This document shows, piece by piece, positions 2,516 to 46,352 of a DNA stretch of 64,000 bases. Made by a program: the position numbers and the translations under genes. The notes under the pieces were generated by a model. That model ran no database searches. It was given only the letters and a program-made list of their open reading frames with translations, and had not been told where the DNA came from. Source of the stretch: Escherichia coli (GTDB lineage: Bacteria; Pseudomonadota; Gammaproteobacteria; Enterobacterales; Enterobacteriaceae); NCBI RefSeq assembly GCF_013122565.1, contig NZ_CP053258.1. One strand, given 5' to 3'. The stretch's first letter is position 1, and every line of letters begins with the position of its first letter.

Positions 2516-4735
2516 CTAAGCGGTAACGGTTTCCTCTTCCTCTTCGTCCATCATTTTCAAATAATGTTTTTCATCACCAGTCATACGAAAAATGGTTTTT
2601 AGTTGCTCCATATATTTCTCTGGAGATATATCTCCCATGTCTGTGATATTAACTGCATCTGAATGGGAACCTCTATTAATGTATCTATAAAATGCTCTAA
2701 AATCATTATTCTTATCATCGCTAGCAAGTTTATTTAACTCTGTCTGTAATGCATCCGTTCTATGAACAAATGCGAAGTAGTATTCCAGTATATTTCTCAT
2801 GATGTTAGGTATTATAACTTTATTTACCCTTCCATCCTTCGCATCTTTTAATACTTGCCATAGGGACTGGTATTCATTCTGAATGCTCTTTTTCTCTATT
2901 TCTGTAATTATGCTATATTCATTTTTTGTTACTCGTCCAAGATAATAATCACGCTTGAATGTTCTATCTTCTTTGCTTCTAGGAGCTAATTTGATAAGTT
3001 CATGAAAGAAATAAAGGTTATGTGTGAGTATTAATGTTTTCTTTACTGCTTTGTTATTGTTGATTATTTCATGGTGAATTATTGAAGCAATATCGTACAC
3101 ATAATTTTGAGAGAGGCTGGATATTGGATCATCAATAACGATAAATACATCTCGCATATCCGTATCATTCTTATCTGTCTTACCTTTACAGCATTCCAGA
3201 AAGTAGAGAAAGGTAATTAAAGTTTTTTCACCCTCGCTAAGAGATCTGTATACATCTTTATCTGTTGTGTTTTCAGAACGTGATATAATATATTTATCAT
3301 TGCTCTCAGTGTGTTTTTTTATGCTAAAACCATAAATTCCTAATAATTTTAGACGTTGATTTATAGAATCTATGGTTGCATCAATGTTAGATATTTGATC
3401 GCGTAGCTCTTTGATCTTTTTGCTATTGTTATCTCCTTGTTCTTTTATGGTATTTAATTCAAGTTGATATTGTTCATAAATGATTTTATAGTCATTCTCA
3501 TATTTTGAGAAAGCTTCAAACTCAGCGTTGCATAATTCTCTTATTGCTCCCCATATTTTGTAACGTATAGACTTTTCACTATCCTTAAATTGTTTGACTT
3601 TAATATTTATTTCTTTAATTCTATTGTTGTACTCTGCTATATTATCAACTACCTTTGCTTCAAGGTCGCTATTGGATTCCAAAATAATAGATATAGATGG
3701 GTTATTGATTTTATCTAACATCAATTTTAAGTTTTTGTTTGCTATTTCCTCTAGTAACGCTATATGAGATGATGTTATATCTTTTTCTTTTGAGGTGATT
3801 AATTCACAAGATGAAATCTCTTGTTTTATTTTTCTTAAATTATCTATGGTAGCGGATTCATAAGACGATCTGATAATGCGTATTTGGTCAACTTTCTTGG
3901 AGTAGCTATCATCAAAGATAGATTCAATTGCTTCTAAAAATTTGTCTTTAATAGTGTCTTCTTGGCAGAATGGGCAACATGTGCCATTTAAATATAATTC
4001 CTTCCCTTTTTTCACCCAGTCAAGGTTTTGAAGTTGTTTAATTGTTTCTGACAAATAGCTATTACTTGAGTCTATAATCGGAGTGGATAAAGATTCTTTA
4101 TCTTTTTCTGAAATGATATATTTTTCTAAAGGTGTAATTGATGCAGTGAATTTATCTTTGTTCTTTAAAAGAATACTATATTCTTGAGCAAGTGACTCGA
4201 TGTTAACGTCAGTGGTTTGAGGGGCTTTTTTAACTTGCTCATAAAATGATCTCTTGCTTCCTAACTGACCTTTCATCAAGTTCTTTAAGTCAGATGATCT
4301 AAAAGGTTCTGCTTTATTCCATATTAAATCAATATATTCATTTTCTTTATTGTTTTTATCTTTAATTAAACGCTCAATAACGTTTTTTTTATCTTTGTAT
4401 TTTGTAAGTAGGTCTTGTCTTATAGCTTCTTTTTCCAACAATTCTTTTTCAATGTCAGCATTTTCCTTACTTAAAGTGAATACTCCTTTTTGCTCTTTTG
4501 CATTATAAAAATTATCCTCAACAAACTTAGTATTATAAACCAATAGGCGAAAAGTATCTATGAAAGGACATTCGCATTCTTTGTAGTCCGTGTTATTTGG
4601 ATTATAGAAATAATTAGATATGGTTGATTTTCCACAACCGTTGTGACCATAAAGTATATTAATTTTTTTTGAGAGATTAAGAGTCGTGAAGCTATCTTTC
4701 TTATAGCTGGTTATATTCTTTAATTTAAGTTCCAT
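2516..4735 (-). CDS. Candidate antiphage/abortive-infection protein: split ABC/SMC-type ATPase with coiled-coil insert, CxxC motif and C-terminal HEPN-like domain (PrrC/RloC-like architecture, inferred)
   Basis: 739-aa ORF with ATG at 4733..4735 and GAGG-type RBS upstream. Walker A GHNGCGKST at residues 30-38; K/E-rich heptad-like region about 85-495 with CCPFC at 253-257; signature-like LSEGEK at 499-504; Walker B/D-loop VFIVIDDPISSLS at 530-542; H-loop LILTHN at 568-573; Rx6H (R684..H691) in the C-terminal ~150 aa. Much more AT-rich than the flanking phage genes. Sits at the P2 old/tin position. Confidence 0.8.
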   Translation of the reverse strand: MELKLKNITSYKKDSFTTLNLSKKINILYGHNGCGKSTISNYFYNPNNTDYKECECPFIDTFRLLVYNTKFVEDNFYNAKEQKGVFTLSKENADIEKELLEKEAIRQDLLTKYKDKKNVIERLIKDKNNKENEYIDLIWNKAEPFRSSDLKNLMKGQLGSKRSFYEQVKKAPQTTDVNIESLAQEYSILLKNKDKFTASITPLEKYIISEKDKESLSTPIIDSSNSYLSETIKQLQNLDWVKKGKELYLNGTCCPFCQEDTIKDKFLEAIESIFDDSYSKKVDQIRIIRSSYESATIDNLRKIKQEISSCELITSKEKDITSSHIALLEEIANKNLKLMLDKINNPSISIILESNSDLEAKVVDNIAEYNNRIKEINIKVKQFKDSEKSIRYKIWGAIRELCNAEFEAFSKYENDYKIIYEQYQLELNTIKEQGDNNSKKIKELRDQISNIDATIDSINQRLKLLGIYGFSIKKHTESNDKYIISRSENTTDKDVYRSLSEGEKTLITFLYFLECCKGKTDKNDTDMRDVFIVIDDPISSLSQNYVYDIASIIHHEIINNNKAVKKTLILTHNLYFFHELIKLAPRSKEDRTFKRDYYLGRVTKNEYSIITEIEKKSIQNEYQSLWQVLKDAKDGRVNKVIIPNIMRNILEYYFAFVHRTDALQTELNKLASDDKNNDFRAFYRYINRGSHSDAVNITDMGDISPEKYMEQLKTIFRMTGDEKHYLKMMDEEEEETVTA

Positions 4736-5065
4736 TTTAAAACCTCATCATTGCCAATGATATTGTATAAATATTTAAGCTGTTTAACATGAATTATTTT
4801 GCTAAACGATAAAGATCTACCTCAGAAGTTTACTTTGTTCAAGCAAAATCTTTTGTTCTAAGAGATATAAAAATTTTTATTAATAGTTTGATTTTTGTTC
4901 ATGGGATTTCCTTTTTTTATGTTTTTACAAAGTAATAACTATGCATGTATCAGGTGCATGGTTTTGCATGTGTCAAAGTTATGCGTCCTCATTGCTTTAC
5001 GTCACAGCTAGCGAGGATTCAACGTACTCATGCAACTGCATTAAAACCGCCCCATGAAGCGGGCG

Positions 5066-41284: not shown

Positions 41285-41425
41285 CAGCGGGACGCTGAAA
41301 CGGGAAAGCCCCTATAAGGAAAGGGTCATGATGAAGTGGATCATCATCGTGGTGCTCTTAGTCATAAGCTTCCCGGCTTACTAAGACTACCAGGGCGGGG
41401 GAAACCCCGCTCTACCCTCACTCCT
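41285..41425 (-). ncRNA. Sib antisense RNA (antitoxin) opposite ibs copy 1; ends approximate
   Basis: In K-12 each ibs ORF lies wholly inside a ~140-nt antisense Sib RNA (established knowledge); the extent here is estimated and no promoter or terminator was mapped. Confidence 0.3.
41328..41384 (+). CDS. Ibs-family type I toxin peptide (MMKWIIIVVLLVISFPAY)
   Basis: 18-codon hydrophobic ORF with GGAAAGGG RBS-like sequence upstream; Ibs family signature MMK...ILV...ISFPAY. Confidence 0.75.
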   Translation: MMKWIIIVVLLVISFPAY

Positions 41426-41611
41426 GAAATTATGCCTTCACGATAAGATTGTCAATCCGCAGGCTTTGTAGTCTGCGATCCTGCCAGCAAATATTCTTTG
41501 CGAGTCGTTACGCAATAATCACACTGGAAACTATTTTATCCGCAAGTCAGCGATAGACTGCATACAGGGCGAAAGGAGGTAAGCCGACGATTTCAGCGGG
41601 ACGCTGAAACG

Positions 41612-41752
41612 GGAAAGCCCCTCCCGAGGAAGGGGCCTTAAATAAGGAAAGGGTCATGATGAAGATACTCATCATCGTGGTGCTCTTAGTGATTAGCTAC
41701 CCAGCATACTAAGACTACCAGGGCGGGGGAAACCCCGCTCTACCCTCACTCC
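41612..41752 (-). ncRNA. Sib antisense RNA opposite ibs copy 2; ends approximate
   Basis: As for copy 1. Confidence 0.3.
41656..41712 (+). CDS. Ibs-family type I toxin peptide (MMKILIIVVLLVISYPAY)
   Basis: Second repeat copy, same frame and context as the first. Confidence 0.75.
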   Translation: MMKILIIVVLLVISYPAY

Positions 41753-41941
41753 TGAAATTATGCCTTCACGATAAGATTGTCAATCCGCAGGCTTTGTAGT
41801 CTGCGATCCTGCCAGCAAATATTCTTTGCGAGTCGTTACGCAATAATCACAGAGGAAACTATTTTGTTCACGCGTTAGCGATAGACTGCATTCAGGGCGA
41901 AAGGAGGTAAGCCGACGATTTCAGCGGGATGCTGAAACGGG

Positions 41942-42085
41942 AAACCCTCTCCCGGAGAAGAGGGCTTTTAATAAGGAAAGGGTTATGATGAAGCACGTCA
42001 TCATACTGGTGATACTCTTAGTGATTAGCTTCCAGGCTTACTAAGAACACCAGGGGGAGGGGGAAACCTCTCCCTAACCCTCACT
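41942..42085 (-). ncRNA. Sib antisense RNA opposite ibs copy 3; ends approximate
   Basis: As for copy 1. Confidence 0.3.
41985..42044 (+). CDS. Ibs-family type I toxin peptide (MMKHVIILVILLVISFQAY)
   Basis: Third repeat copy; 19 codons; closest of the three to K-12 IbsA from memory. Confidence 0.75.
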   Translation: MMKHVIILVILLVISFQAY

Positions 42086-42264
42086 CCTGAAATTATGTCA
42101 CTCCGCCCTTAGTGTCAATCGACGGCTCTCCGTTCTTGCGAGGCGAATAGCAAAATTTTCTGCGCCGCCGGGCCTAATTCTGAAAGTTTCTTCGTTTGCT
42201 CTTATTTCATTATTGCAATCGGTATGATACCGGACCTCGATAATTCTCTAAGAAAGGATTTCTT

Positions 42265-42924
42265 ATGAGCGAACAAATCACGTTTGCCACCAGCGATTTT
42301 GCCAGTAACCCGGAACCACGTTGCCCCTGCATTTTGCTGCTGGATGTTTCTGGTTCGATGAACGGTAGACCCATTAATGAACTTAACGCCGGATTGGTTA
42401 CCTTTCGCGATGAGCTGCTTGCCGATTCGCTGGCCTTAAAAAGAGTGGAACTCGGTATTGTGACGTTCGGCCCGGTGCATGTGGAACAACCATTTACCAG
42501 CGCCGCTAATTTTTTCCCGCCCATCCTGTTTGCCCAGGGCGATACACCAATGGGGGCCGCCATTACCAAAGTCCTGGATATGGTTGAGGAGCGCAAACGT
42601 GAGTATCGTGCAAATGGTATTTCGTATTATCGCCCGTGGATTTTCCTGATCACCGATGGCGCTCCAACCGATGAGTGGCAGGCTGCCGCCAACAAAGTGT
42701 TTCAGGGGGAAGAAGATAAGAAGTTTGCCTTCTTTACCATCGGTGTGCAGGGGGCGGATATGAAGACGCTGGCACAAATCAGCGTTCGTCAGCCTTTGCC
42801 ACTGCAGGGATTACAATTCCGTGAACTGTTTAGCTGGTTATCCAGTTCACTGCGTTCGGTTTCCCGCTCCACGCCGGGAACGGAAGTTGTGCTGGAAGCA
42901 CCAAAAGGCTGGACGTCAGTGTGA
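42265..42924 (+). CDS. yegL: von Willebrand factor A domain protein YegL
   Basis: 219 aa; MIDAS-like DxSxS motif (LLLDVSGSM); same length as K-12 YegL. Confidence 0.9.
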
Positions 42925-43682
42925 GCTGGCGTCTGGTCTATGCATCAACCGTTGGAACGTCGCACATCAGCGCGGACTTGCCTTGCCAGGATGCCTGCCA
43001 GATGCAGGTTGCCTGGTTAAATGACCAGCAGCCATTATTGTCGGTATTTGTCGCTGATGGCGCAGGCAGTGTCTCGCAGGGTGGCGAAGGCGCGATGCTT
43101 GCCATCAATGAAGCGATGGCTTATGTGTCGCAAAAAGTGCAGCACGGTGAATTTGGACTCAATGATATCCTCGCCACGGATATTGTGCTGACCGTTCGTC
43201 AGCGACTTTTTGCCGAGGCGGAAGCCAAAGAATTAGCAGTTCGCGATTTTGCCTGCACGTTTCTGGGATTGATTTCATCGGCTAACGGCACCTTGATTAT
43301 GCAGATTGGCGATGGCGGCGTGGTGGTGGATTTTGGTCACGGTCTGCAATTACCGCTTACGCCGATGGTGGGTGAATATGCCAATATGACGCATTTCATT
43401 ACCGATGAAGATGCCGTTTCCAGACTGGAAACTTTCACCATCACTGAGCGTGTGCATAAAGTTGCAGCATTTACGGACGGTATCCAGCGACTGGCGTTAA
43501 ATATGTTGGATAATTCTCCGCATGTGCCTTTCTTTACCCCGTTTTTCAATGGACTGGCGTCAGCAACGCAGGAACAACTCGATTTATTACCTGAATTGTT
43601 AAAGCAGTTTTTGTCCAGCCCGGCGGTAAACGAGCGTACGGATGATGATAAAACGTTGGCACTGGCGCTGTGGGCAGAGTGA
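42921..43682 (+). CDS. pphC: PP2C-family Ser/Thr protein phosphatase PphC (YegK)
   Basis: 253 aa, start overlaps the yegL stop; matches K-12 PphC length and position. Confidence 0.85.
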
Positions 43683-43746
43683 GTTTCTCATGGCGGTTGA
43701 AGACAACAATTCAACCGCCAGTTTAAGCAATCAATATAACGGCTGA

Positions 43747-44208
43747 TTAGCGAACTAATTTTGCTCTTAGCTCGTCGGCTTCTTCTTTTGGATAGGTGAC
43801 CAATAAAGGATCAATGGTATAACCGCCGTAAATTTTATCCCCGCGCGTATACATCCAGTCTGAAATATCTTCTTTCTTGATTTTCCACTCCTGGCCATAT
43901 TCTACGTTTGTAACAATACCAGGGTCATTGCTGATTACGCCAATAAACATGCCGTTAGAATAAGTGACATCCGTAAGCCAGAAATGCTCGGTTCTTCCGT
44001 GATCGGTTATCGGGGCTTTGACTGCGAAAGTATCGGCATCTTTTTTATTCATAACCTCGATGAATTTATCGGTTTCTTTCCGCGCATGTTTAATCGCGTC
44101 AGACATCGCTTGTTTATCATAACCTCCTGTCACTAACGTATCCGAAACTTCACAATAGCCTGCGGTAGTAAAACATAGCAGGCTCAACATGAGTAATATC
44201 TTTTTCAT
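43747..44208 (-). CDS. yegJ: Secreted DUF2314-type protein YegJ
   Basis: 153 aa with N-terminal signal peptide (MKKILLMLSLLCFTTAGYC); same length as K-12 YegJ. Confidence 0.85.
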   Translation of the reverse strand: MKKILLMLSLLCFTTAGYCEVSDTLVTGGYDKQAMSDAIKHARKETDKFIEVMNKKDADTFAVKAPITDHGRTEHFWLTDVTYSNGMFIGVISNDPGIVTNVEYGQEWKIKKEDISDWMYTRGDKIYGGYTIDPLLVTYPKEEADELRAKLVR

Positions 44209-44405
44209 TTTTTCTCCAGAATCTCTGTGTAGTAAAAGTTAGCAAAACCTGTGGAAGTTAATCATTATCAGGTTGGAATTGAATTGTATCCTGATGAAAT
44301 TACATTATCATTTTTATTCTTGAGTGGGCTCTTCCCATATAGAAATAATTATAATGGGCAGTGTTATTATTCATTGAAATATAATATTACTGCCCTTGAA
44401 ACATT

Positions 44406-46352
44406 ATGAAGACAAATATAAAAGTATTTACATCAACAGGTGAAATGACCACTCTCGGTCTTGAACTGGGCAAAGGTGGCGAAGGTGCGGTTTATGATAT
44501 CGAGGAGTTTGTCGATAGCGTCGCTAAGATTTATCACACGCCGCCACCCGCCTTAAAACAGGACAAACTTGCCTTTATGGCTGCGACAGCTGACGCGCAG
44601 TTGTTGAATTATGTCGCCTGGCCGCAGGCAACGCTTCACGGTGGACGAGGCGGAAAAGTTATCGGTTTTATGATGCCAAAAGTTTCTGGTAAAGAACCGA
44701 TTCATATGATCTATAGCCCGGCACATCGTCGCCAGAGTTACCCTCATTGTGCGTGGGATTTTCTACTCTATGTTGCGCGCAATATTGCTTCATCTTTTGC
44801 TACGATTCACGAGCACGGGCACGTCGTGGGTGACGTAAACCAGAACAGCTTTATGGTAGGTCGCGACAGCAAAGTGGTGTTGATTGATAGCGACTCCTTT
44901 CAGATTAATGCCAATGGCACGCTGCATTTATGCGAAGTCGGCGTGTCGCATTTTACGCCGCCAGAGCTACAAACCTTGCCATCATTTGTCGGCTTTGAAC
45001 GCACCGCGAATCACGATAATTTTGGCCTTGCGTTGCTGATTTTTCACGTCTTGTTTGGTGGGCGGCATCCTTATTCTGGTGTGCCGCTTATCTCTGATGC
45101 GGGGAATGCGCTGGAGACGGATATTGCCCATTTCCGTTATGCCTACGCGTCAGATAATCAGCGACGTGGTTTAAAACCGCCGCCACGATCGATTCCGCTG
45201 TCGATGTTACCGGGCGATGTTGAAGCCATGTTTCAGCAGGCATTCACGGAAAGTGGCGTGGCAACCGCGCGTCCGACGGCAAAAGCGTGGGTAGCGGCAC
45301 TTGATTTACTACGCCAACAGTTAAAGAAATGTACCGTTTCGGCAATGCATGTTTACCCCGGTCATTTGACTGACTGCCCGTGGTGTGCGCTGGATAATCA
45401 AGGCGTTATCTATTTTATTGATCTCGGCGAAGAGGTCATTACCACCAGTGGTGATTTTGTGCTGGCGAAAGTCTGGGCGATGGTGATGGCGTCAGTAGCA
45501 CCGCCAGCATTGCAATTGCCATTACCCGATCATTTCCAACCGACTGGCCGGCCGCTTCCTTTAGGCCTGTTACGGCGCGAATACATCATTCTGATTGAGA
45601 TCGCACTGTCAGTGTTATCGCTGTTGCTTTGCGGCCTTCAGGCAGAACCGCGTTATATTATTTTGGTTCCTGTGCTGGCGGCTATCTGGATTATTGGCAG
45701 CCTGACAAGCAAAGCGTACAAAGCAGAAGTCCAGCGACGAAGAGAGGCTTTTAATCGCGCGAAAATGGACTATGATCATTTAGTCAGCCAGATCCAACAA
45801 TTGGGCGGGCTGGAAGGTTTTATCGCCAAACGGGCGATGCTCGAAAAAATGAAGGACGAAATTCTCGGGTTACCGGAAGAAGAGAAACGCGCTCTGGCAG
45901 CACTTCATGACACTGCAAGGGAACGGCAGAAGCAGAAGTTTCTGGAGGGATTTTTTATTGATGTTGCCTCTATTCCCGGCGTTGGCCCTGCGCGTAAAGC
46001 GGCGTTACGGTCCTTTGGTATTGAAACAGCAGCGGATGTTACCCGTCGTGTCGTTAAGCAAGTGAAAGGGTTTGGTGATCATCTGACCCAGGCAGTTATC
46101 GACTGGAAAGCAAGTTGCGAACGCCGTTTTGTGTTCAGGCCGAATGAAGTGGTAACGCCAGCAGACAGACAAGCGGTAATGGCGAAAATGACCGCCAAAC
46201 GACATCGGCTGGAATCGGCGTTGACTGTCGGCGCGACAGAGTTGCAGCGATTCCGCCTTCATGCTCCAGCACGGACCATGCCGTTGATGGAACCTTTACG
46301 TCAGGCGGCAGAAAAACTGGCTCAGGCGCAGGCAGATTTAAGCCGCTGCTGA
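44406..46352 (+). CDS. yegI: Atypical Ser/Thr protein kinase YegI with C-terminal membrane and coiled-coil region
   Basis: 648 aa; kinase-like fold features (HGHVVGDVNQNSFMV; DSDSF); same length as K-12 YegI. Confidence 0.9.
   Translation: MKTNIKVFTSTGEMTTLGLELGKGGEGAVYDIEEFVDSVAKIYHTPPPALKQDKLAFMAATADAQLLNYVAWPQATLHGGRGGKVIGFMMPKVSGKEPIHMIYSPAHRRQSYPHCAWDFLLYVARNIASSFATIHEHGHVVGDVNQNSFMVGRDSKVVLIDSDSFQINANGTLHLCEVGVSHFTPPELQTLPSFVGFERTANHDNFGLALLIFHVLFGGRHPYSGVPLISDAGNALETDIAHFRYAYASDNQRRGLKPPPRSIPLSMLPGDVEAMFQQAFTESGVATARPTAKAWVAALDLLRQQLKKCTVSAMHVYPGHLTDCPWCALDNQGVIYFIDLGEEVITTSGDFVLAKVWAMVMASVAPPALQLPLPDHFQPTGRPLPLGLLRREYIILIEIALSVLSLLLCGLQAEPRYIILVPVLAAIWIIGSLTSKAYKAEVQRRREAFNRAKMDYDHLVSQIQQLGGLEGFIAKRAMLEKMKDEILGLPEEEKRALAALHDTARERQKQKFLEGFFIDVASIPGVGPARKAALRSFGIETAADVTRRVVKQVKGFGDHLTQAVIDWKASCERRFVFRPNEVVTPADRQAVMAKMTAKRHRLESALTVGATELQRFRLHAPARTMPLMEPLRQAAEKLAQAQADLSRC

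Follow-up and report, generated by a model that had tools for sequence, protein, structure and literature searches.

The yegL-pphC-yegI cassette of Escherichia coli as a probable membrane-anchored variant of the TerY-P triads

The TerY-P (TerY-phosphorylation) triad of ter clusters was reportedly described by Anantharaman, Iyer and Aravind in 2012, and is said to have been proposed as a family of metal-sensing, phosphorylation-dependent switches tied to DNA processing and to the repair of xenobiotic damage. The subject of this text is a cassette very probably of the same class, yegL-pphC-yegI, which lies at 42265-46352 in a stretch of 64,000 nucleotides of Escherichia coli DNA (contig NZ_CP053258.1 of assembly GCF_013122565.1; hereafter, the window) and encodes a von Willebrand A (vWA) protein, a PP2C phosphatase and a Ser/Thr kinase; the membrane anchor and the predicted helix-hairpin-helix (HhH) module of the kinase mark it as a distinct subtype. 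TerY-P-like modules protect against T7-like phages (PMC11090510, PMC7699616, 10.1101/2022.08.12.503731). On the IncHI2 plasmid pMyNCGM606, the TerY genes are followed by the gene of a 545-residue PP2C_2 protein and then by that of a 502-residue kinase, an order which is the canonical TerY-P arrangement (PMC4978471, PMC11090510). Also known already, besides the TerY-P concept, are the E. coli genes and their enzyme activities: PphC (YegK), an atypical PP2C phosphatase, is active and removes phosphate from YegI (10.1101/303594), and YegI, whose HRD and DFG motifs are exchanged for VGD and DSD, has Ser/Thr kinase activity; it autophosphorylates on activation-loop serines with second-order kinetics and crosses the inner membrane twice, with both N- and C-terminus inside (10.1101/819920). 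YegI and PphC are the only pair of a Hanks-type kinase and a PP2C phosphatase known in E. coli, and their role has been open since 2018-2020; the two papers just cited report neither substrates nor expression conditions and do not mention TerY. The first-pass annotation of the window, a model's reading of the letters alone, was therefore correct in calling the substrates unknown, and had overlooked the published biochemistry of both enzymes.

When considered protein by protein, the cassette corresponds to the TerY-P triad in all three of its members. YegL matches the Pfam VWA family (E=3.5e-10), and what had been read as a MIDAS-like motif is a full metal-ion-dependent adhesion site (MIDAS), D27-x-S29-x-S31 with T94 and D131, of which, among 39 orthologues from several phyla, S29 is kept in at least 80% and each of the other four residues in at least 95%. 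On plasmids, the nearest relatives of YegL that are not orthologues bear the annotation TerY or TerY-C and belong to tellurite-resistance clusters (tblastn E=1e-15 to 3e-17, 32-36% identity), and the alignment of YegL with TerY contains the same MIDAS residues and a common C-terminal FxW(L/V)S(A/S)S...S tail, the Ser-rich YegL version of which includes the invariant S195 and S200. A homologue search with YegL was, for its part, swamped by E. coli alleles and uninformative. PphC matches Pfam PP2C_2 (PF13672) with E=2.1e-50, as does the ter-linked phosphatase of the IncHI2 plasmid with E=3.4e-45, and the two proteins are related in BLASTP at E=2e-4. Hypervariability of PphC, suspected from gapped nucleotide alignments, was rejected once the protein alignment revealed ordinary, evenly spread divergence. 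Finally, YegI is related to the IncHI2 ter-linked kinase (BLASTP E=3e-7) over a region spanning the C-lobe and the Cys motif, and its zinc-knuckle segment aligns with the post-kinase zinc ribbon of that kinase (CPWC versus CPYC). The locus hence holds a TerY-family vWA protein with an intact MIDAS, an adjacent PP2C_2-type phosphatase whose gene overlaps yegL, as was noticed at first reading, by four nucleotides, and an adjacent Ser/Thr kinase followed by the CHCC zinc knuckle and then by the predicted HhH module, in the place where TerY-P kinases have a zinc ribbon or another nucleic-acid-binding domain. On these grounds we hold it very probable that yegL-pphC-yegI is a TerY-P-class triad, forming a distinct, membrane-anchored HhH subtype.

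The unity of the cassette is best seen across bacteria. A scan of one genome per species for relatives of YegI yielded 43 loci from at least eight phyla, the proteobacterial hosts being Escherichia, one Klebsiella species, many Burkholderiales and other Gammaproteobacteria, and the further hosts one actinomycete (Actinomycetota) and members of the Acidobacteriota, Cyanobacteria, Planctomycetota, Myxococcota and Lentisphaerota; within the Enterobacteriaceae of this survey, matches are confined to Escherichia and the one Klebsiella species. YegL-like (E=1e-68 to 1e-145) and PphC-like (E=1e-36 to 1e-159) open reading frames (ORFs) sit immediately upstream of the YegI-like kinase, sharing its strand, at 41 of the 43 loci, one of which meets a contig end and retains the PphC-like ORF alone, and the two exceptions are a kinase-only and a rearranged locus. 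The sizes of the gene products are nearly fixed (219, 253 and about 646 residues), and plasmid loci also keep the vWA, PP2C and kinase genes contiguous on one strand, so that the three are maintained as one operon over distant taxa. The compact signalling module suspected from the window alone is thereby confirmed for yegL-pphC-yegI, and so is the co-occurrence of the three genes outside Escherichia, whose absence had been named beforehand as the outcome that would speak against it. The YegI family as a whole counts 3219 representatives of 50%-identity clusters at E<=1e-30, mostly matching over their full length. In Escherichia itself, the yegL-pphC-yegI locus is found in 5417 of 5426 complete E. 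coli genomes (99.8%); the window is not K-12 DNA, K-12-type records having about 96% identity and the best complete genome 97%. The RefSeq annotation of E. coli F163 contains the same four genes (the three plus yegJ) with the same lengths, which together with the ORF coordinates upholds their placement in the first-pass annotation.

A fourth, effector gene was sought beside the 41 loci, and no other neighbour family occurs in more than 4 of them; the recurrent ones are DUF4236/GYF proteins and a PHB esterase common through Burkholderiales synteny. The only loosely recurrent neighbour is a protein of about 360-460 residues encoded just upstream of the cassette at five unrelated loci, with DUF4236 in L014 and L059 and GYF_2 in L040. 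The gene yegD was considered as a module member and rejected, being linked only in Escherichia. Variation in individual loci of other phyla includes a rearranged triad (L049, 2998-14979) in which YegL is fused into a protein of about 980 residues beside a 1644-residue NERD-kinase-TPR protein, two YegI-like kinases in tandem (L038, 4014-10149) and a kinase-containing neighbour of 1806 residues (L034, 2586-8003).

The structural features of YegI are those which define the subtype. The E. coli protein has no Pkinase match in a Pfam scan, with HHH_5 as its sole, sub-threshold hit, although 63 of 72 members of the family do match Pkinase. Its AlphaFold2 model (pLDDT 94.2, pTM 0.81) nevertheless reveals a kinase fold, similar to those of PknB and BRAF in Foldseek (TM about 0.7, E about 1e-7). 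In an alignment of 108 homologues with 33-91% identity, the invariant residues are G24, K41, D143, N145, D161, P186, E187, D204 and R289 in the kinase part, followed by C309, H315, C324 and C327 and, in the predicted HhH region, by L534, A542 and W567. The bilobal fold and the invariant K41, D143 and D161 supply the catalytic Lys and Asp of a Hanks-type kinase, and the label "atypical kinase" given at first reading proves apt. Behind the kinase domain, the zinc knuckle is modelled as a small β/α element which continues into a linker and then into the membrane hairpin, with helices at 391-410 and from 417 to about 440; the sequence of this hairpin varies across the family while its hydrophobicity is kept, in agreement with the published PhoA-LacZ topology. 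By that topology, these predicted domains of YegI are all placed in the cytoplasm. In the model, a helical stalk runs from the hairpin to residue 513 and leads to the HhH region, whose sequence shows GVG and GFG as two GxG hairpins; HHH_5 is matched by 18 of the 72 family members (best E=3.1e-5), and a relative on a Sphingobium plasmid carries an extra terminal DNA-binding zinc ribbon of the Top1 type. The long helix at the end of the model is probably a coiled-coil or putative dimerisation element. A Foldseek comparison of the C-terminal fragment with the PDB gives no significant global match, returning coiled coils alone (E>0.3), and a PDB sequence search with the YegI profile, YegL and YegJ returned nothing. 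The C-terminal region had been taken for membrane and coiled coil, a description which passed over the zinc knuckle and the predicted HhH module.

Relatives of YegI are present in 83 plasmid records, 46 of them conjugative, and the carriers include Agrobacterium and Rhizobium plasmids as well as Pseudomonas megaplasmids such as pQBR103. Nine Escherichia plasmid matches are not readable as plasmid carriage, because several of the records are evidently chromosomes; the PLSDB records NZ_CP141089.1, NZ_CP134663.1 and NZ_OL790696.1, which contain yegI, measure 4.8-4.9 Mb and are chromosomes filed as plasmids. A phage collection gave one weak partial match to YegI only. With regard to the neighbourhood, 13 independent non-Escherichia loci were inspected gene by gene for defence genes within 8 kb, and in this small sample, to which no genome-wide score is attached, defence or restriction genes are found in 9 of the 13 contexts (listed in Table 1), including Wadjet, BrxR, ScoMcrA, AbiH, GmrSD and type I and IIG restriction-modification. 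A pooled comparison of 202 neighbour ORFs from 38 loci (111 plus 91) with the PADLOC models at E<=1e-8 gave 182 model matches for the 111 and 121 for the 91, that is, 1.3-1.6 per ORF, versus 0.26 per ORF for the 34 other ORFs of the window, where nine models are matched, all on one ORF. The models matched by neighbours include JetABC, type I restriction-modification, IetA, PifA, MADS and PD-T4-6. Known defence genes are thus enriched near the cassette, and the resemblance to modules of conflict systems remarked upon in the first-pass annotation has gained substance from the homology of all three proteins to the TerY-P triad and from the usual position of the cassette among defence genes.

In contrast to these three genes, yegJ is an inserted passenger, that is, a lineage-specific secondary insertion and not a member of the module, so that the four-gene module yegL-pphC-yegJ-yegI proposed at first reading holds in that three of its genes form one unit and fails for the fourth. 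Membership was rejected because yegJ lies beside no other locus and is missing from 65% of E. coli genomes: the segment carrying it is present in 1924 of 5426 complete genomes (35%) and in no non-E. coli locus, and a YegJ homologue, sought beside 50 other loci, was found at none. In pphC the replacement has altered the three final codons and in yegI roughly the first 12, and the segment has a GC content of 0.36-0.44, with the flanks at about 0.51. Strains lacking it have an ATGA overlap of pphC and yegI, as in other phyla; the replacement therefore broke an ancestral overlap, and with it the translational coupling of both genes was lost. Since the insertion uncoupled kinase from phosphatase, K-12 is a poor background for studies of the operon. 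The inverted repeat between the convergent pphC and yegJ is, from its sequence, a possible bidirectional terminator, which, lacking a T-run, was missed by the terminator scan; promoters and terminators in that scan did not exceed shuffled expectation. YegJ itself matches Pfam DUF2314 (E=2.2e-25), and its N-terminus, MKKILLMLSLLCFTTAGYC, resembles a Sec signal peptide, in keeping with its initial description as a secreted protein. YegJ binds RNase E's catalytic domain, according to two-hybrid and pull-down assays, and its overproduction is toxic and damages the membrane; the study in question treats YegJ as cytoplasmic, with two-hybrid clones beginning at residue 16 (PMC13232886). A signal-peptide-like N-terminus and a cytoplasmic RNase E partner are in conflict here, and the clones start past the hydrophobic core. 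The published restriction of yegJ to K strains is, in addition, too narrow for a segment present in that many genomes.

Table 1. Features of the locus and of related loci; positions refer to the window unless a locus (L number) is named.
Feature	Position	Strand	Remarks
yegL	42265-42924	+	219 residues; ORF read from the window
MIDAS DxSxS (D27-S31) of YegL	42343-42357	+	read from sequence; T94 and D131 complete the motif
pphC (yegK)	42921-43682	+	253 residues; GTG start; 4-nt GTGA overlap with the yegL stop
yegJ	43747-44208	-	153 residues; DUF2314
yegI	44406-46352	+	648 residues; membrane-anchored atypical Ser/Thr kinase
YegI kinase domain, residues 1-305	44406-45320	+	Foldseek; K41, D143, N145 and D161 invariant in 108 homologues
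YegI zinc knuckle, residues 306-331	45321-45398	+	C309, H315, C324 and C327 invariant in 108 homologues
YegI membrane hairpin, residues ~391-440	45576-45725	+	two hydrophobic helices, 4-residue loop
YegI HhH module (predicted), residues 517-575	45954-46130	+	IPGVGPARKAAL and VKGFGDHLTQAV; L534, A542 and W567 invariant
YegI C-terminal 60-residue helix, residues 585-647	46158-46346	+	AlphaFold2, pLDDT above 90
Replacement segment carrying yegJ	43676-44455 (approximate, ~780 bp)		alignment with BL21 and E. whittamii, both without the segment
Inverted repeat GGCGGTTGAA-N7-TTCAACCGCC	43693-43719		between convergent pphC and yegJ
SIB_RNA match	41313-41455	-	tandem Sib antitoxin RNAs between mdtA and yegL
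SIB_RNA match	41641-41783	-	as above
SIB_RNA match	41970-42118	-	as above
yegI in-frame stop	L009, 8653-10617		MOD1-EC7003
yegI frameshift	L010, 4482-6447		E1V33
Upstream neighbour, ~360-460 residues	L014, 5560-6738		
Upstream neighbour	L018, 3316-4470		
Upstream neighbour	L040, 6701-7948		
Upstream neighbour	L044, 6909-8309		
Upstream neighbour	L059, 5294-6376		
Context 1			SLFN-like helicase, MazG, ScoMcrA, SNase, BrxR, JetB
Context 2			AbiH and KAP NTPase, inside a Tn7-like element
Context 3			GmrSD, SymE, type I restriction-modification
Context 4			type I restriction-modification, Mrr
Context 5, conjugative Sphingobium plasmid			integrase, GIY-YIG nuclease, DNA repair exonuclease and ATP-binding protein; softest of the nine
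Context 6			DUF262, UvrD, Hxs
Context 7			Nmad2/3, type IIG restriction-modification
Context 8			ScoMcrA, PLD, radical SAM genes
Context 9			KAP NTPase, QatB, TatD, Mrr

How the cassette is maintained in Escherichia was considered through the ratio of nonsynonymous to synonymous substitution (dN/dS), in comparisons with E. whittamii, BL21 and two other lineages (dS up to 0.33). The values are 0.03-0.10 for yegL, about 0.13 for pphC and 0.10-0.13 for yegI, from which it follows that all three genes are maintained by purifying selection. On the other side, yegI is broken in two of the five Escherichia species representatives, by an in-frame stop and by a frameshift, yegL and pphC being intact; one strain has an IS1 insertion at the locus, and yegI mutations recur in the long-term evolution experiment. 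These disruptions and mutations are signs of dispensability.

Because homologous triads protect against T7-like phages in the work of others, and on the evidence of the neighbourhood, we give about an even chance to the reading that the cassette may serve in defence against phages or mobile DNA, as a membrane-anchored variant of TerY-P. Several observations speak against it. A defence system would not usually be core, as this locus is in E. coli; the cassette is not detectably expressed under laboratory conditions, and we found no report of an anti-phage or anti-plasmid phenotype for it. Of the inspected contexts, three of 13 are plainly metabolic or uninformative and one is weak, with an AHH toxin gene alone nearby. 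The HHH_5 match of E. coli YegI (E=0.0011, 19.9 bits versus a cut-off of 27) is sub-threshold, and the local Foldseek similarity of its C-terminal model to the (HhH)2 N-terminal domain of Rad51/Dmc1 (probability 0.87-0.95) is non-significant at E about 0.9. No tie between the cassette and the experimentally validated Pseudomonas aeruginosa TerY-P variant was found: a published sequencing primer has no match in metagenome contigs, and P. aeruginosa proteins do not appear among the best 120 relatives of a Pseudomonas YegI homologue. In a PADLOC scan, YegL reaches the TerY model with E=0.057, PphC is unmatched and YegI has weak generic kinase-domain matches only (PD-T4-6, E=2e-4, and MkoA); as a control, the same models likewise miss the canonical IncHI2 TerY and its phosphatase, so that what PADLOC measures is nearness to the system cloned by Gao, not class membership. 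Moreover, DNA binding, YegL phosphorylation and the activation trigger are all inferred.

If the defence reading is right, the cassette might work as follows, in a scheme which as a whole we put forward tentatively and consider rather doubtful. PphC would hold YegI dephosphorylated and inactive, until the HhH module on its stalk binds DNA near the inner membrane, for instance incoming phage or conjugative DNA. Such binding would gather kinase domains and allow the trans-autophosphorylation of YegI, and the active kinase would then phosphorylate its targets, one likely candidate being the Ser-rich tail conserved in YegL; the MIDAS site of that protein would serve as the phospho- or metal-dependent adaptor. 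As an outcome, replication of the invading DNA, or else the DNA metabolism of the host, could be disturbed. The E. coli copy would be an old, fixed and normally silent acquisition; in about a third of strains, this one among them, the insertion of yegJ has separated yegI from pphC. By extension, the family of more than 3000 clusters at 50% identity could be an immune system that stands alone and has so far escaped annotation: its membrane-anchored kinase would detect foreign DNA crossing the inner membrane through a cytoplasmic HhH module and then act by phosphorylation, with a TerY-like vWA protein as phospho-dependent partner, K-12 carrying a silent core copy; this we regard as speculative.

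Other explanations start from the same data. In a genome-wide overexpression screen, endogenous DNA damage rises with the overproduction of either YegL or YegI (10.1101/354589), a result compatible with a defence effector that acts on DNA metabolism and also with a DNA-damage or stress signalling system in which the HhH kinase senses damaged or stalled chromosomal DNA near the membrane and phosphorylates repair or replication proteins. Signalling of this kind would account for the damage and mutation that follow overproduction of either protein and for the repair genes seen in some neighbourhoods (alkA in E. coli, LexA, RecC, a Y-family polymerase on pQBR103 and a DNA repair exonuclease), and TerY-P was itself first described within a stress-response framework. 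However, no repair neighbour recurs across loci, ter genes are absent beside the YegI-type cassette in the inspected contexts, and conflict systems are a better match for the patchy, plasmid-borne spread beside restriction, Wadjet and Abi genes, whilst a mis-activated defence effector would also damage DNA when overexpressed; we consider this signalling role unlikely.

The core status of the locus and the purifying selection on it could, alternatively, mean that YegI and PphC are an ordinary eukaryote-like kinase/phosphatase pair for E. coli housekeeping, for instance in stationary phase or at the envelope, with YegL as an accessory and the defence neighbours as a coincidence. The published framing, which is one of general Ser/Thr signalling with low stationary-phase expression, agrees with such a role, as do the roughly 100 E. 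coli Ser/Thr phosphoproteins without an assigned kinase. Yet a sensor outside the cytoplasm is absent from YegI, whose two membrane helices are joined by a loop of four residues, and the cassette is missing from other Enterobacteriaceae except one Klebsiella species; its carriage on conjugative plasmids, its disruption in two of five Escherichia species representatives, the recurrent yegI mutations of the long-term evolution experiment and a strict cross-phylum linkage of three genes, which is unlike housekeeping kinase pairs, make a housekeeping function distinctly improbable. Finally, the lack of detected expression, the end of pphC/yegI translational coupling by yegJ in 35% of genomes, and the nonsense and frameshift alleles in two lineages together with the IS1 insertion in one strain could all belong to a decaying relic, acquired once as a mobile conflict cassette and now silent, often split by yegJ and in practice functionless. 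Decay is, however, at odds with a dN/dS of 0.03-0.13 for all three genes at dS up to 0.33, which indicates sustained purifying selection, with the activity of both YegI and PphC in vitro and with the retention of the locus in 99.8% of genomes, and a relic appears very unlikely.

As regards the surroundings of the locus in the window, the ibs/sib array mentioned beside the module at first reading is indeed there, in the form of three SIB_RNA matches that represent a type I ibs/sib toxin-antitoxin at 41313-42118. The F163 and BL21 genomes have two annotated ibs genes at the position upstream of yegL, so the copy number differs by strain. In the Rosetta2/BL21 chromosome (L054, 1-1545), the ibs-yegL side adjoins bcsG and ldrD rather than mdtA, an arrangement which indicates a chromosomal rearrangement with its breakpoint in the ibs/sib region. 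Farther away, the sole PADLOC match among the window's 34 other ORFs is a 742-residue ORF on the minus strand (2519-4744), which matches PDC-S06, a candidate single-gene defence system of PADLOC, over its full length (E=5e-253), and whose C-terminal part is PrrC-like (E=2.6e-14).

In the searchable literature, which does not include the original TerY-P description (a text that may list these genes), we found no paper linking yegL, pphC or yegI to TerY-P; neither the family-wide architecture of zinc knuckle, membrane hairpin and HhH module nor the cross-phylum conservation of the cassette and its association with defence islands was found there. Placement in the TerY-P class turns an open-ended search for substrates into specific questions, namely phage or plasmid challenge, DNA binding and phosphorylation of the YegL tail. 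It also draws attention to a widespread membrane-anchored TerY-P subtype which is missed by the models of PADLOC, the one defence-annotation library tested.

Comparison with known systems places the cassette among several that it resembles in part. With PknB/PstP and PrkC/PrpC, and with the single-gene kinase defences PD-T4-6 and Stk2, it has in common the kinase fold of YegI and a phosphatase that resets an autophosphorylated kinase, and a weak PADLOC similarity (E=2e-4) links YegI to the PD-T4-6 kinases; in contrast to these kinases, YegI is devoid of PASTA or other extracellular sensors, has VGD and DSD where they have HRD and DFG, and is joined by an obligatory vWA partner and by an intracellular HhH module, the latter predicted. 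The TerY-P cassettes within CoCoNuT systems of types II and III-A, which are McrBC-related, have a triad whose kinase carries a fused zinc ribbon and which has been proposed to be a separable defensive cassette; the YegI-type cassette differs in being unlinked to CnuB, CnuC and CnuH and in standing alone between variable flanks. The TerY-P anti-phage system (Gao et al. 2020; P. aeruginosa variant, Costa et al. 2024) is likewise a stand-alone triad of vWA, PP2C and kinase found in defence islands, and its kinase has a C-terminal nucleic-acid-binding domain, for which the predicted HhH module would be the counterpart in YegI. The validated systems, however, carry an OB-fold on the kinase (PMC11090510), whereas no OB-fold is predicted in the C-terminal half of YegI, which consists instead of the membrane hairpin, the stalk, the HhH module and the long helix; they also have PADLOC models of their own, none of which match YegL, PphC or YegI. 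The triad of the ter clusters has the same three families in the same gene order: a TerY-type vWA protein with a MIDAS and a Ser-rich tail, a PF13672 phosphatase, and a Ser/Thr kinase with a Cys-rich zinc module behind it. Pairwise similarity to it is low (24-36% identity), there are no terZABCDE genes near the YegI-type cassette, and PphC is minimal, with 253 versus 545 residues. A single TerY with an N-terminal NPEPRCPC extension, YegL, takes the place of the several TerY/TerX and TerY-C proteins of the ter clusters, and the YegI-type kinase has, in addition, two helices as a membrane anchor, a helical stalk, an HhH module as predicted here and a long terminal helix.

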